Notes: generated by a model not told the origin, from the letters alone. A stretch of DNA of 16,413 bases from Promethearchaeota archaeon (GCA_027031765.1 JALVPN010000213.1:1-16413), one strand, 5' to 3'. Positions 2,143 to 10,689 are shown, counted from the stretch's first letter. Program-made: numbers and translations.

Positions 2143-2949
2143 TCATAGTGTTTCGTCCATGGAGCCCGTCCTGTAGCCCCACACGTCGACTGTCACATAT
2201 CGCATCCCGAGAGCACGGACGGCCCTGTGCAACTCGTCCAAGCCGTCACTGTCGAACAGGAGGGGCCTCTCATCATGGCCGACCTCTATGCGCACGAGGT
2301 CACCATGCAGACGGGCACGCACCGACCTGACACCAAAACGCCGTATTACCAGTCCTTCAATCGTTTCCACTGCGGCCAGCCGCTCGGCCGTGACCCTGGT
2401 ATGGTACGGGAACCTTGTGGCGAGGCAGGCGCCCGAGGGCAGCCCGGCCACAGAGAGGCCATGACTGCGCAGGAGCTCGCGTACATCGCTCTTTGTGAGG
2501 CCTGCGTCGAGCAGTGGCGAAACTACGCCTGCCTCAACGAGAGCTGCGTGACCTGGACGATGCCCCTCCATGTCCGAGGCCGTGGTGCCCTCCACCACCA
2601 GCGTCAGCCCGTGCTGCTGCGCCATGGAGAGCCAAAGGGTGGCTAGAGCGCGCTTGCACAAGTAACACCGTTCAGGCGGGTTCTTGACCAAGGCGGGGTT
2701 GCCAAGCCAGTCATACTCCACAACTCTCAGTGGGAGCCCGAGTTCGTCGGCAACACGTCGTGCGCGGTCGGTCTCAGAGCTCGGGACAGTCTGGGACGCG
2801 ACCGTGACCAGGAGGGTCTCGTCAGCAGCCATCTTGGACAACAGTGCAAGCGCGGTGCTGTCGACGCCACCACTGAACGCCACCAACACCCGGTGTCCAC
2901 GGAGGATGTCACGTACACGACTGGTCTTTGCCTCAAGTGTGCTGTCCAA
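2143..2949 (-). CDS. larE: LarE-family ATP-dependent sulfur transferase (PP-loop, TIGR00268-like)
   Basis: VAFSGGVDS PP-loop, RCYLCK, EGT.ASD...RPG, SPL, CLATRFPY, VRAR.HG..VRIEV and the C-terminal YVTVD..GYRTGSM motif. TTG start is the first possible start after an in-frame stop. Confidence 0.88.
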   Translation of the reverse strand: MDSTLEAKTSRVRDILRGHRVLVAFSGGVDSTALALLSKMAADETLLVTVASQTVPSSETDRARRVADELGLPLRVVEYDWLGNPALVKNPPERCYLCKRALATLWLSMAQQHGLTLVVEGTTASDMEGHRPGHAALVEAGVVSPLLDAGLTKSDVRELLRSHGLSVAGLPSGACLATRFPYHTRVTAERLAAVETIEGLVIRRFGVRSVRARLHGDLVRIEVGHDERPLLFDSDGLDELHRAVRALGMRYVTVDVWGYRTGSMDETL

Positions 2950-3002
2950 CGTGCATCATGGCACACGATGGCAGTGGGGTATTAAGGTCTCAGGATGGAC
3001 CA

Positions 3003-4856
3003 TCAGTCATCGCGTGTGCCGTTGTCGGACATGTACGGGTCGACGACAGCAGAAATGCCACTGTAGCCTTGGTCTTCGAGGACATCCCGTATCGACTCCG
3101 CACCGCCCATCCATCTGACCATCCACTGTCCATCTTTGAGGCTGAGCTCGACATCTAGGAGGTCACCGAGGAGGTTGTGGTTCATCTCGATTGTGTCCTG
3201 GTATGCACCGAGCAGTGCGAGCACAATGTACGAGCCCTTGAGCCCGTCCAGACGGGGAATAGGAATGCCCAGGCCCATCTGACCGCCGGGTGTCGTGATT
3301 GGGCGGTCGTCCAGTGTGTACCAGACCTCCCCAGTGTGGCGCCTGTAGAACTGGGAGAACTCGCCGTCTGAGTCGCATGTTATGTCTGCCAGACGGATTG
3401 TGGTCTCAGGGCGAGTGTCAAGACCTGTGACCGGCACCGCGGGGAAGTACTGGCCTACGAGTACGTGGTCCGCAATACTATTGAACACTGAGAAGTTCCC
3501 GATAGCGATATGCTCAGGGGCCCACGGGTCACTCGGCCCGTCGGCGGCGACCAGCGAGGTCACACCGAGGGCCCGTGCGCGTTCCCTGACCAGCGCCCGT
3601 GCAGCCCCGACCAGTGCCTCATCTTTCAGCAGTTGTTGCAGACTGCTTGTCCTCTGTGTGAAGCGCTCATGGAACAGACGCCACTCCCGTCCGAGCCCAT
3701 CGGCCGACTCAGACTGCTCGAGCCGGGCCCTGAAAGCCTCAAGCACCTCAGATAGTGCGGGGTCGCTGACGTAGGAACTGGGTGGGTACACTGAACGCAC
3801 CTCAAGGACTCTCACGACGACCAGCGAGCTCGTGGCCGTGATCCCCCGTCCGGCCTCGACCATGAGGTCTGGGTGGTCTTGACAGTCCAACGTGTCAAGG
3901 GCCCTGACCAGACCACTGATGATGGAGTCAGCGTAGGCGTCGATGTACGAGCCACGGTACGAGCTCGTATAGTCAATCGGGAGGCCGCCACCAAGGTCGA
4001 TGGTGCGGAGGCCCGTGAGGCCCAGCTCACGTAGCTGGGAGTACATGTCCACCATGAAGGCACCGAAGTGACGGAGGCCCTCCATGTCGGTGACCTGAGA
4101 GCCCACATGGCCCAGTATCGCTGACACGGAGCCCGCAAAGCCTGTGGAGCGGAAGTGGTCGACCACACACAACAGGTCATGTATGCTGAGCCCAAACTTG
4201 GAGTCGCGTCCGGCCGAGTGCGACCAGTACCCCTCAACATGGAGATAGGGCTTCAGACGGAGGACGAGATGTATCGAGGCAGGGTCGAAGATGTCAGTGA
4301 TCAGCTGCGCTTCGTGGAGAGACTCTACAGAGACCCACAACTTATGGCCGGACTTGATGTGCCTGCGTATCATCCGGAGGTACTCTGGGTCCTTCGCACC
4401 ATTGCAGACAATGATGCGGTCCCGCTCATCGGCCAGCAGCGACCCGAGCAGTACGAGCTCCGCCTTGGTGCCTGCCTCAAAACCGTACTCCGGGTCGGAG
4501 CGTGCCACGGCCATGACGTAGTCGTGACGCTGGTTCACTTTCACAGGGTACACCGGTAGGAAGCGGCCCTTGTAGCCCTTCTCGTCCAGCACCCGTCTGA
4601 AGGCGGCCCTCAGACGACGGATGCGGTCGGTGATGAGCTGCGGGATGCGGACTGTGAATGACGATGTGTAGGTGTCCCTTGTGCCATCACGTTGCTGCAC
4701 ACGTCTGATTATCTCTGGCAGCGATATCCGGTGTCCGTCGATGCAGATGCACAGGTCACCGTCATCATTGACATCCAAGAAGTCCAGGTCGCCACGTGCG
4801 AGGCCGTACACTGTGCGCGCCTGCGAGACTGACCACCCGGTATCGCCACCTGTCAT
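3003..4856 (-). CDS. speA: Biosynthetic arginine decarboxylase, PLP-dependent fold type III (SpeA-like)
   Basis: YPVKVNQ (PLP Lys), EAGTKAEL, CNGAKD, SAGRDSKFGL, HVGSQ, DLGGGL, EAGRG, NFSVFNS, DITCDSDG, GAYQD and HNLLG follow the SpeA motif order. ATG at 4856 (617 aa) is preferred over the track's 4895, which overlaps the upstream gene. Confidence 0.9.
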   Translation of the reverse strand: MTGGDTGWSVSQARTVYGLARGDLDFLDVNDDGDLCICIDGHRISLPEIIRRVQQRDGTRDTYTSSFTVRIPQLITDRIRRLRAAFRRVLDEKGYKGRFLPVYPVKVNQRHDYVMAVARSDPEYGFEAGTKAELVLLGSLLADERDRIIVCNGAKDPEYLRMIRRHIKSGHKLWVSVESLHEAQLITDIFDPASIHLVLRLKPYLHVEGYWSHSAGRDSKFGLSIHDLLCVVDHFRSTGFAGSVSAILGHVGSQVTDMEGLRHFGAFMVDMYSQLRELGLTGLRTIDLGGGLPIDYTSSYRGSYIDAYADSIISGLVRALDTLDCQDHPDLMVEAGRGITATSSLVVVRVLEVRSVYPPSSYVSDPALSEVLEAFRARLEQSESADGLGREWRLFHERFTQRTSSLQQLLKDEALVGAARALVRERARALGVTSLVAADGPSDPWAPEHIAIGNFSVFNSIADHVLVGQYFPAVPVTGLDTRPETTIRLADITCDSDGEFSQFYRRHTGEVWYTLDDRPITTPGGQMGLGIPIPRLDGLKGSYIVLALLGAYQDTIEMNHNLLGDLLDVELSLKDGQWMVRWMGGAESIRDVLEDQGYSGISAVVDPYMSDNGTRDD

Positions 4857-9182: not shown

Positions 9183-9252
9183 CGCACCACCCCTTGGACT
9201 CCTGTGATAGCCGTCTGGGGACTGTTATGTATGTTGTGATTACTACACATCT

Positions 9253-10689
9253 CTATACTCTCAACTCCTGTGCAAGCGCTTCCACGAGCTTGGAAACGCC
9301 ACCTGCGCCTGCCACGGTGAAGGTCTCTTGTGAGAGGGTACCATCTATGGCGCCGTCGCCAAGCAGAATGAGGAGAGTCCTGCGCAACACCGCGACCGGA
9401 ATCCCGGTCTCTTCGGCCATGACATGCAGGTCAAGGCTGTTGTCACTACTCAGGAGGCGGTCAACGACCCGCTGCAGGTCTTCAACGCTCACACGCGCAC
9501 CGGGTGGGGGCGTAACAACAGCAGGTGGCTCCGATACCACGAACCGGGGCCCATCAAAGTATCCGTCGAGCATGCCCTGCTTGACCATCGACTGGATGCC
9601 ACGGCGGAGGTTGTAGGCGGCCGGCTGTGGCAGCGTCCTCCTGAGCAGGCAGTCGAGGTCTGGGAGCGGGATCTCGTGGTGCTTCGACAGGACAGCCGCG
9701 ATGCTCTCACGGATGGACTCTTCCACAACGTACTCGTCCATGACCTCGAGCACGGCACCACAGGACTCACACCGCGAGGCCTCCGGTGATGTCGGGGCCC
9801 CACAGTTCCCACAACGGATGACACGACGGTATAGGGTTGTCTTGGTCGAGCCGATGTCATCAAGGATGCGGCGTTCAGTATGCGTCAGTTCGCTGGACTC
9901 GACCAGCCGCCAGAAGTGCACCCTCAAGTCGCCAGTACTCACTACCAGATATGCAGTATCAGAAACATCATCGGGCGTCCCTGTTGCCAAGGCTCTTGGG
10001 GGCGCCGAGAGCTGCAAGGAACCGACAACGACACCATTGAGGTCCCACAGACGCAGGGTTGGTGAGAGGTCGCCGGTCACGAACAGCTTCCGCTCCCCGA
10101 ATGTCAGCACACCGAACACACGTATCGCTCCGTTCAGCGTCAGGGTCCGGATAAGATAGCCGGCCGCAGTCACGATGTGCACGTTGCCCCGCCTGTCGGC
10201 CACCACCACTTCCAGCTCGGAGTCGTTGGTGATGTCCTCAAGCCACACATCAGCGAGCGGGTTGTCAAAGGTACGGCTGAAGAGTGCCGTCCTGTCGTGG
10301 TTCCAGAGGACGACCCGCCGGTTCTGCAGCGCCGCGACAACCTCGGCTGCATCGTCACCATCGACATCCCGCGCATCGCAGGCTAGGACCTCGCTCTCAA
10401 GGCGCATGTTCCAGACCGGGGCGCCGCGGTGGTCTACAACCAGTAGCCGTTTTCCAACGCCACCGACAAGCGAGTCGTGTCCGGTCGCCCCTATGTCACC
10501 CACAGCAATGCAACGGACTTTGCTACTCCAGTGTTTTGACGACCGCTGTCTTCCCTGAGCATCGAACACACGTAGACGGTCGCCATAGTCCAAGGAGAAC
10601 ACCTCTGTCTGCGCGTCTGGCCGCTGTCGCACATACAGCCCATAGACAACAGCAGACACAGGCCTACTTGCAACGTGTTGGATCCTCAC
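9253..10689 (-). CDS. Cytoplasmic beta-propeller (FG-GAP-like repeats) + CxxC..CxxC zinc ribbon + two PCI-like winged helices
   Basis: Repeats of ~40 aa with D-x-D/N-G/D loops (GDIGATG, DVDGDD, DITNDS) and W/F-x strands. CGNC..CESC at 9760-9813. WH-like tails LRRGIQSMVKQGMLDGYFD and LRRTLLILLGDGAIDGTLS. GTG at 10689 (MRIQHVAS.., 478 aa) is preferred because the track's 10890 start overlaps the divergent HDAC gene. No signal peptide or TM seen. Confidence 0.75.
   Translation of the reverse strand: MRIQHVASRPVSAVVYGLYVRQRPDAQTEVFSLDYGDRLRVFDAQGRQRSSKHWSSKVRCIAVGDIGATGHDSLVGGVGKRLLVVDHRGAPVWNMRLESEVLACDARDVDGDDAAEVVAALQNRRVVLWNHDRTALFSRTFDNPLADVWLEDITNDSELEVVVADRRGNVHIVTAAGYLIRTLTLNGAIRVFGVLTFGERKLFVTGDLSPTLRLWDLNGVVVGSLQLSAPPRALATGTPDDVSDTAYLVVSTGDLRVHFWRLVESSELTHTERRILDDIGSTKTTLYRRVIRCGNCGAPTSPEASRCESCGAVLEVMDEYVVEESIRESIAAVLSKHHEIPLPDLDCLLRRTLPQPAAYNLRRGIQSMVKQGMLDGYFDGPRFVVSEPPAVVTPPPGARVSVEDLQRVVDRLLSSDNSLDLHVMAEETGIPVAVLRRTLLILLGDGAIDGTLSQETFTVAGAGGVSKLVEALAQELRV

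Follow-up and report, generated by a model that had tools for sequence, protein, structure and literature searches.

A candidate docking-only receptor pair with a proposed link to agmatine synthesis in Asgard archaea

Among the extracellular sensors of prokaryotes, Cache-HAMP receptors are the commonest and, to our knowledge, those studied so far end in an enzyme or in a chemotaxis signalling domain. What would such a receptor do if it ended in a protein-docking scaffold or in nothing at all, and why would it be encoded beside an arginine decarboxylase? This question is raised by a 16,413-nucleotide (nt) stretch of DNA from a Promethearchaeota archaeon (GCA_027031765.1 JALVPN010000213.1:1-16413; hereafter, the window). 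It corresponds to contig C213 of an Asgard metagenome-assembled genome (G000; 2.95 Mb, 95% complete), and the closest relatives of its proteins are sequences labelled Thorarchaeota (Thor). Five co-oriented open reading frames (ORFs) occupy positions 2143-10689 of the minus strand and encode, in order of transcription, a propeller protein (P5), two membrane receptors (R1 and R2), SpeA and LarE. Our analysis suggests an undescribed kinase-free tie between amine sensing and agmatine/polyamine supply. The reading that we prefer, an amine-sensing, docking-only receptor coupled to agmatine synthesis, draws on sequence comparison and complex prediction, and we would give it a probability of roughly 0.5.

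A receptor pair with no enzymatic output

The five genes are listed below (protein lengths in amino acids, aa; PLP, pyridoxal 5'-phosphate; TM, transmembrane segment; TPR, tetratricopeptide repeats; vWA, von Willebrand factor A domain).

2143-2949, minus strand: LarE-family PP-loop sulfur transferase (TIGR00268, 248.5 bits, above the equivalog cut-off of 150)
3003-4856, minus strand: SpeA-type PLP-dependent arginine decarboxylase, 617 aa (NF003763 match and alignment to 3nzq)
4864-6330, minus strand: R2, a 488-aa paralog of R1 with a TTG start; TM1, extracellular dCache_1, TM2, HAMP, then the stop (Pfam)
6345-9182, minus strand: R1, membrane receptor, 945 aa; TM1, dCache_1, TM2, HAMP-like segment, TPR, docking helix, vWA
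9253-10689, minus strand: P5, cytoplasmic adaptor, 478 aa, GTG start (domains from a structure model)

Within R1, the following segments were assigned (MIDAS, metal ion-dependent adhesion site).

8013-9089, minus strand (aa 32-390): extracellular dCache_1 (Pfam)
7773-7934, minus strand (aa 417-470): HAMP-like segment (Pfam, below cut-off)
7131-7772, minus strand (aa 471-684): TPR (Pfam)
7074-7130, minus strand (aa 685-703): predicted docking helix (complex prediction)
6378-7061, minus strand (aa 708-935): vWA with MIDAS (Pfam and residue conservation)

The dCache_1 domain (PF02743, gathering cut-off 45) was detected in both receptors, with 67.6 bits in R1 and 56.7 bits in R2. HAMP (PF00672, cut-off 25) scored 16.8 bits in R1, where only the first helix matched, and 24.5 bits in R2; among orthologs, the scores were 34.8 bits for R1 of family f9 and 27.6 bits for R2 of family f22. 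The cytoplasmic part of R1 was matched by several TPR families (TPR_12, 84 bits) and by VWA_2 (47.5 bits) and VWA (30.4 bits), and the residues of its MIDAS (DxSxS plus Thr and Asp; D716, S718, S720, T791 and D820) were invariant in 17 orthologs. R2 is 27% identical to the N-terminal half of R1. It stops a few residues past HAMP in 17/17 orthologs and is thus not a decayed gene. Scans with Pfam and NCBIfam revealed no HisKA, HATPase, MCPsignal, GGDEF/EAL, cyclase or PP2C domain in R1 or R2, in agreement with an earlier note on this DNA, which had seen no kinase, methyl-accepting chemotaxis protein (MCP), cyclase or phosphatase output in the pair. The sole kinase-type matches were weak full-length ones to kinase families, across the TM-HAMP stretch.

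Two further features of the receptors were observed. Their extracellular regions are long for dCache_1 (~360 aa), and a conserved, aromatic- and Cys-rich insertion lies ahead of the distal module (aa 90-170 of R1 and the equivalent of R2). The C-terminus of R1 (window 6348-6390) is strongly conserved and acidic, reading LEVGGSTVDY in Thor and VDVEGFLPEE elsewhere; judged by its sequence, this tail might fill a MIDAS site of the same or of another molecule.

To see how far this arrangement extends, we used a survey of 301 genomes of the phylum, including 76 in the window's own family and 224 non-family genomes that served for co-occurrence counts. The order P5-R1-R2-SpeA was present in 15/15 fetched same-family loci, down to 36-40% identity, and a conserved arrangement, beyond chance, was seen in each fetched relative possessing R1. 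Full-length P5 was restricted to the window's family (~62/76 genomes), whereas R1 was found in f1, f5, f9, f12, f14, f22, f24 and f27, and SpeA in f1, f5, f12, f14, f22, f27 and f29. R1 and R2 were always adjacent and form an obligate pair over at least eight Asgard families. This pair adjoins SpeA in six families and a P5-like propeller gene in four, or both. Among the 224 non-family genomes, 24 had R1 and SpeA, 14 had R1 only, 7 had SpeA only and 179 had neither; as the surveyed genomes are related to one another, we claim no statistical test on this co-occurrence. The layouts outside the window's family were as follows.

f22 (Hodarchaeales/Heimdall by source names): SpeA divergent from R1-R2; P5-like gene convergent on the other side
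f5: SpeA divergent from R1-R2
f27: R1-R2-SpeA, then a second PLP decarboxylase
f14: R1-R2-SpeA
f12: SpeA 6 kb from R1-R2
f9 and f24: R1-R2-P5-like; SpeA not found in the surveyed genomes (f9, 0/68; f24, 0/7)

The neighbourhood of the three signalling genes, whose conservation the earlier note had named as a check, therefore holds over Asgard families even where it is rearranged, and clustering that outlasts rearrangement points to function rather than inherited order. The second decarboxylase of f27 (L049, G239:C15, 13635-15071), of the Orn/DAP/Arg type, directly follows R1-R2-SpeA and is nearest to LysA or ornithine/lysine decarboxylase models, under their cut-offs.

In a search of 5.8 billion proteins, all matches to the R1 family were Asgard-labelled except one from Zixibacteria. 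The latter (P0147) is a full-length R1-family protein from a Zixibacteria bin with 40% identity to Hodarchaeales R1, which would mean either that the contig was mis-binned or that the gene was, exceptionally, transferred out of Asgard.

Several Thor genomes have SpeA without the receptors. In G001 (L043, C7, 7982-8454), ~40 P5 codons are fused to the final 120 of R2 (TM2 and HAMP). This remnant reflects a ~4.3 kb deletion in which R1 and most of P5 and R2 were lost while the histone deacetylase (HDAC)-family gene upstream of P5, SpeA and LarE stayed intact. G004 has also lost the sensors, and its SpeA and HDAC genes are immediate neighbours. In the SpeA tree, the stand-alone copies of G012, G021 and G024 branch within SpeAs that are linked to sensors, which indicates that the sensors were lost repeatedly; this branching also ruled out a separate SpeA paralog for the stand-alone copies.

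The ligand pocket and the supply of agmatine

What might the pair sense? The dCache_1AA motif of amino acid receptors is Y-x4-R-x-W-Y...Y...D, in which Arg binds the carboxylate of the ligand (PMC8915833). The motif residues of PctA (Y121/R126/W128/Y129/Y144/D173) align with Y213/E218/W220/Y221/Y240/D269 of R1, and the corresponding positions of R2 are F217/E222/W224/Y225/Y241/D271. Thus, neither receptor has the complete motif: the Arg position is Glu in 16/17 R1 orthologs and acidic in 16/17 R2 orthologs, and the remaining five positions are kept, the residues that hold the amino group being retained in both R1 and R2. A comparison across families found R2 acidic at the Arg position in every SpeA-linked lineage. 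Retention of the amino-group residues together with replacement of the carboxylate-binding Arg by Glu or Asp suggests that the likely ligand is an amine lacking a carboxylate, for example agmatine or a di-/polyamine.

Two loci of f24 (L052 in G289 and L055 in G286) had both R1 and R2 with the full canonical YDPRxRxWY...PYxD...D, Arg included. Both R1-R2 pairs are accompanied by a propeller protein of 381-382 aa, and neither genome yielded a SpeA match. The f24 form may be the ancestral, amino-acid-sensing version of the module.

The pocket of R2 is intact in all families and that of R1 is degenerate in f9 and f14; thus, R2 may be the main ligand binder. The best PDB match of the R2 profile was 3LIB (E 6e-17), which is counted as dCache_1AM, an amine-motif class that its authors describe as still uncharacterised (PMC10589655). 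Acidic-pocket dCache receptors are also known: TlpQ and McpU, chemoreceptors for polyamines, agmatine and histamine, bind agmatine and polyamines, with nM-uM affinity for agmatine and putrescine, by a negative pocket whose Tyr/Asp/Asp triad, holding the primary amine, is also present in R1 and R2 (PMC6234866). Unlike R1/R2, these receptors signal through CheA/CheW; they were not among our PDB matches, and no specific sequence relationship was detectable. We know of no link of TlpQ or McpU to speA.

The decarboxylase of the window aligns with E. coli SpeA (3nzq) over approximately its full length, keeping VYPVKVNQ (with the PLP lysine), HVGSQ, GGGLP, EAGR and CDSDG. Its NCBIfam scores were 323.6 bits for NF003763 (equivalog cut-off 369) and 299.8 bits for TIGR01273 (cut-off 624.1). 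The 95%-complete genome yielded no PdaD (pyruvoyl arginine decarboxylase), arginase/agmatinase, agmatine deiminase or spermidine synthase, so that SpeA is the only arginine decarboxylase, and the only agmatine source, seen there. Archaea need agmatine for AUA decoding, in which TiaS makes the agmatidine of tRNA-Ile, and agmatine is also the entry to polyamines in archaea. TiaS and deoxyhypusine synthase (DHS) are both present in the window genome; no pathway that would turn agmatine into a polyamine can be seen in it. A link of the locus to agmatine/polyamine status had been raised earlier as a possibility, and it gains support from the co-occurrence of R1 and SpeA, the acidic pockets, and the presence of TiaS where no other arginine decarboxylase was found.

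The last gene fared differently. LarE follows SpeA in ~10/17 informative Thor loci and in no other family, and LarC is encoded elsewhere in the window genome. Judged by gene neighbourhoods, LarE is a lineage-specific passenger outside the conserved module and not a member of the system, as which the earlier note had counted it.

The propeller protein and its predicted docking on R1

No Pfam family matched P5 over its cut-off. Its GTG start at 10689 is backed by 15 orthologs (477-486 aa), all of which begin at the same aligned codon. A structure model (predicted local distance difference test score, pLDDT, 84.6) contained a beta-propeller, a helix, a C4 Zn ribbon and two winged helices, placed as follows.

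9895-10689, minus strand (aa 1-265): beta-propeller (structure model)
9757-9813, minus strand (aa 293-311): C4 Zn ribbon (model; Zn_Ribbon_1 just under cut-off)
9535-9735, minus strand (aa 319-385): winged helix 1 (structure model)
9313-9483, minus strand (aa 403-459): winged helix 2 (structure model)

We predicted the complex of R1(460-945) with P5 in three runs, with three controls. The interface score (ipSAE) was 0.70, 0.69 and 0.72, a mark attained by 58/80 solved complexes and by 2/110 mismatched pairs; the best control gave 0.00. The runs had at least 63% of contacts in common, with a partner pLDDT of 84. In the predicted contact, the R1 helix 685-703 (PSHEVRREAERLYR), located between TPR and vWA, lies on the top face of the P5 propeller, which contributes approximately one residue per blade, including the invariant Y16, Y35 and R59. 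A contact between the TPR/vWA part and the propeller had been proposed before. A complex is indeed predicted, but it forms through the helix between the two domains and uses neither the groove of TPR nor the MIDAS face. Identity over orthologs is 82% for the contact residues of R1 and 62% for the whole cytoplasmic part. As an independent check, R1 His692 is kept in 8/8 orthologs from lineages with an adjacent P5-like gene (f1, f22, f9, f24), whereas in 5/5 orthologs that have no such adjacent gene (f27, f5, f12, f14) it is replaced (E, R, D, K, E). The complex prediction and the His692 pattern thus support binding of P5 to R1.

This prediction also bears on whether the complex could be structural. 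The vWA with its complete MIDAS, the integrin-type DxDxDG loops in P5, sub-threshold FG-GAP_3 and Itfg2 matches, and the fact that the sensors are dispensable in several lineages would fit an integrin-like (vWA plus FG-GAP) structural or adhesion complex of R1, R2 and the propeller that does no signalling, speA being adjacent because of shared expression conditions. We consider this very improbable: vWA and propeller are cytoplasmic by topology, the predicted contact avoids the MIDAS face, dCache_1 followed by a HAMP-like segment is a signalling architecture whose pocket is conserved at residue level, and the linkage to SpeA outlasts rearrangement.

The affiliation of P5 was also analyzed. Foldseek with the whole protein returned generic propellers alone. 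P5 scored 15.6 bits against BBS2 (PF14783, cut-off 27) and 17.5 bits against FG-GAP (PF13517, cut-off 26.9), both under the cut-offs, and the f9 relative of P5 scored 33.4 bits against BBS2_Mid. An atlas search found this propeller type to be common to proteins of Chloroflexota, Woesearchaeota and Methanobacteriota. Because the type occurs in bacteria and other archaea too, we dropped a BBSome-specific reading of the propeller, and the "eukaryote-like" logic once suggested for the locus is not established. The PCI identity proposed for the winged helices is no more than tentative: the second one scored 16.8 bits against PCI (PF01399, gathering cut-off 22) and Foldseek of the C-terminal model against PDB gave no match at E<=1e-3. 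Weak Foldseek rows for this part were the tandem winged helices of UFL1/DDRGK1, cullin WHB, STK19, ESCRT-II and PCI (1ufm, E 0.22). P5 relatives keep the propeller and differ in their C-terminal modules, with a winged helix and a Cys-rich finger in f22 and a beta-rich domain and a Zn ribbon in f9, which fits a constant docking part and a variable effector part.

What would the C-terminal part of P5 do? The sequence elements around the P5 start and the R1-R2 junction are relevant here.

10726-10733, minus strand: TATA-like box TTTATATA (read directly), 37-44 nt upstream of the P5 start
10701-10704, minus strand: GGTG Shine-Dalgarno-like element, 11 nt before the P5 GTG start
6338-6345, minus strand: ribosome-binding site GGAGGTGA (perfect match), overlapping the R1 stop TAG, 6 nt before the R2 TTG start

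The intergenic gaps are 70 nt (P5/R1), 14 nt (R1/R2), 7 nt (R2/SpeA) and 53 nt (SpeA/LarE), and the ORFs and ortholog loci confirm the layout given in the earlier note: five co-oriented genes with these gaps, one TATA box, and a ribosome-binding site over a stop codon. A cTTATATg element at -38 to -46 is kept upstream of P5 in orthologous loci, and GGTGC at -11 to -16 recurs ahead of P5 in orthologs. The P5-R1 gap is only 4-17 nt in some relatives, making a conserved internal promoter there unlikely.

It is possible, though we regard it as unlikely, that P5 is a membrane-sequestered transcription factor that R1 holds or releases according to ligand, as PtsG does with Mlc. In such a scheme, P5 would be the sole true output, the Zn ribbon and winged helices would bind DNA and control the shared promoter and speA transcription, and SpeA would never touch the receptor. 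The predicted docking of P5 on R1 is what this scheme would need, and so are the conserved promoter elements ahead of P5 and the invariant basic helix (RRTLP..AYNLRR) in the region of the two winged helices; SpeA divergent from R1-R2 in Hodarchaeales and f5 is the usual regulator/target layout. However, R1-R2-SpeA persists in f27, f14, f5 and f12 where there is no adjacent P5-like gene, P5 relatives elsewhere end in the other domains described above, and Foldseek returned no DNA-binding family at E<=1e-3, its weak matches being mostly protein-binding tandem winged helices.

Neighbouring genes, known systems and the proposed mechanism

An enzyme encoded elsewhere could also complete the pathway, with R1 and R2 as accessory sensors feeding it. 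Candidates would be a PAS histidine kinase upstream, a MoxR ATPase, or a Ser/Thr kinase/PP2C pair. Kinase/phosphatase pairs are frequent partners of vWA domains. So are MoxR-type ATPases (PMC3495828). The histidine kinase is a soluble PAS-PAS protein (window 12074-13480, plus strand; HATPase_c, 68 bits) encoded 1.4 kb upstream on the opposite strand, and it is syntenic in several Thor genomes, whether or not the sensor genes are present. Taken more broadly, then, the locus does include a kinase, although one that looks independent. It stays in place, as does the HDAC gene, in G001 and G004 after sensor loss and was not seen at the loci of other families, both of which argue against it as a partner, and in the layouts examined R1-R2 has no companion gene for a MoxR, kinase or phosphatase. 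We therefore view a hidden conventional pathway of this kind as distinctly unlikely.

Other neighbours were noted. A class-II HDAC-family gene (window 10735-11838, plus strand; Hist_deacetyl, 245 bits) is divergent from P5 and adjoins SpeA in nearly all Thor loci, including the sensor-less G001 and G004. Among PDB entries, it is most closely related to HDAC6 and to bacterial HDAH or acetoin-utilisation proteins; HDAC10, a polyamine deacetylase, ranks below these. The gene product may be an acetylpolyamine amidohydrolase, in keeping with the polyamine theme. Two small paralogous genes for MarR/HTH_24-type winged-helix proteins (window 1176-1463 and 1790-2092, plus strand) are convergent with LarE, and in G009, G023 and G004 a relative is encoded at a distance of a few kb from the cluster.

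How does the receptor pair compare with known systems? PctA/PctB/PctC of Pseudomonas and Mlp37 of Vibrio, which are dCache_1AA receptors (PMC8915833), have the same sensor fold and topology and share five of six motif positions; 5ltx and 6iop were among the best sequence matches of the R1 Cache in the PDB (E~1e-9). R1 and R2 differ from them in the replacement of Arg by Glu or Asp, in the longer extracellular region with its conserved insertion, and in an output that is TPR-vWA or nothing instead of the MCP signalling domain. MCPs with CheW/CheA resemble R1 in that the receptor is non-catalytic and acts via a docked cytoplasmic partner. In contrast to MCPs, the R1-R2 locus has no MCPsignal domain, methylation sites or CheW/CheA, and has a TPR-vWA scaffold and a propeller partner. 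BatA-BatD are likewise membrane proteins with TPR and vWA but no enzyme, and a weak NCBIfam match to the BatC TPR was seen; however, they have no Cache or HAMP sensor and belong to a different gene set.

The eukaryotic proteins alpha2delta and CACHD1 have dCache_1 and a MIDAS vWA in one polypeptide, as does R1. CACHD1 (8s7c) was the top PDB sequence match of the R1 Cache region (E 1.4e-9), although bacterial Cache domains score equally; alpha2delta-1 matches the R2 profile at ~1e-10, and some Hodarchaeales orthologs carry a precomputed VWA_N match. However, the alpha2delta vWA is extracellular and inserted in Cache, whereas that of R1 is cytoplasmic and follows TM2, HAMP and TPR. Compared with PDB sequences, the R1 vWA gave no match at E<=0.01, and thus has no specific tie to the alpha2delta vWA.

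A literature search found no prior description of an Asgard Cache/TPR/vWA receptor, of its link to speA or polyamines, or of an Asgard BBSome tie. One BBS7/ITFG2-like Asgard cluster appears, with no further detail, in the catalogue of eukaryotic signature proteins (ESPs) of a 2026 preprint. As sensor and transmission parts, dCache_1 and HAMP are standard; what is undescribed in the literature searched is the output logic, the obligate partner that lacks an output, the use of a propeller adaptor and the association with speA.

In the reading we prefer, R1 and R2 would form a two-subunit, Asgard-specific transmembrane receptor, presumably a heteromer, that signals via docking and not catalysis. 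R2, which has the better pocket and no output, would probably be the ligand-binding co-receptor, and the ligand outside the cell would be a carboxylate-free amine, e.g., agmatine or a di- or polyamine. Inside the cell, the HAMP-like segment of R1 would lead to the TPR-vWA scaffold as a docking platform, where the top face of the P5 propeller is predicted, with support from the covariation, to dock on the helix between TPR and vWA. Conserved linkage suggests SpeA as a second client or target of this platform. Ligand occupancy may then alter what docks at the membrane, and agmatine synthesis could be adjusted, in whichever direction, either directly on SpeA or via the Zn-ribbon/winged-helix part of P5. 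The platform would thus serve clients of two types, SpeA and the propeller adaptors; R1-R2 is accompanied by one, the other or both, and neither is universal.

It should be noted that several observations weigh against an amine-sensing receptor coupled to agmatine synthesis, and that its basis is computational throughout. The Arg-to-acid replacement alone does not identify the ligand, and the f9 R2 pocket is acidic although no SpeA was found in f9. The trio of R1, R2 and P5-like genes in f9 and f24, where SpeA was not found, indicates that the module is not tied to SpeA everywhere. Conversely, SpeA persists in several Thor genomes that have lost the sensors and so does not need them, which also fits a regulatory accessory role for the sensors. 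SpeA scores below both equivalog cut-offs, and its substrate is thus inferred; the HAMP score of R1 is under the Pfam cut-off as well. Finally, the P5 contact residues do not, on average, exceed the remainder of the propeller in conservation (0.60 vs 0.61), and the C-terminal domains of P5 relatives differ between families.

A broader proposal, to which we give a slim chance, is that of an Asgard-born kinase-free receptor-adaptor pathway, split between a ligand-binding subunit and one that offers a docking platform to exchangeable clients (SpeA, or propeller adaptors with varied effector ends), that is also evolutionarily related to the eukaryotic Cache-vWA proteins alpha2delta and CACHD1. If this kinship were true, part of that eukaryotic architecture would have been present in the archaeal ancestor and would not have come from a bacterial donor. 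The R1-R2 pair is also found in Hodarchaeales, the group placed closest to eukaryotes.

The R1-R2 family thus ends in a pure docking scaffold or in nothing, and it is a conserved pair in Asgard archaea tied to an agmatine-making enzyme. If the coupling of amine sensing to agmatine synthesis is true, it would represent a new output logic for a very common sensor and the first candidate regulator of agmatine/polyamine homeostasis in Asgard archaea.

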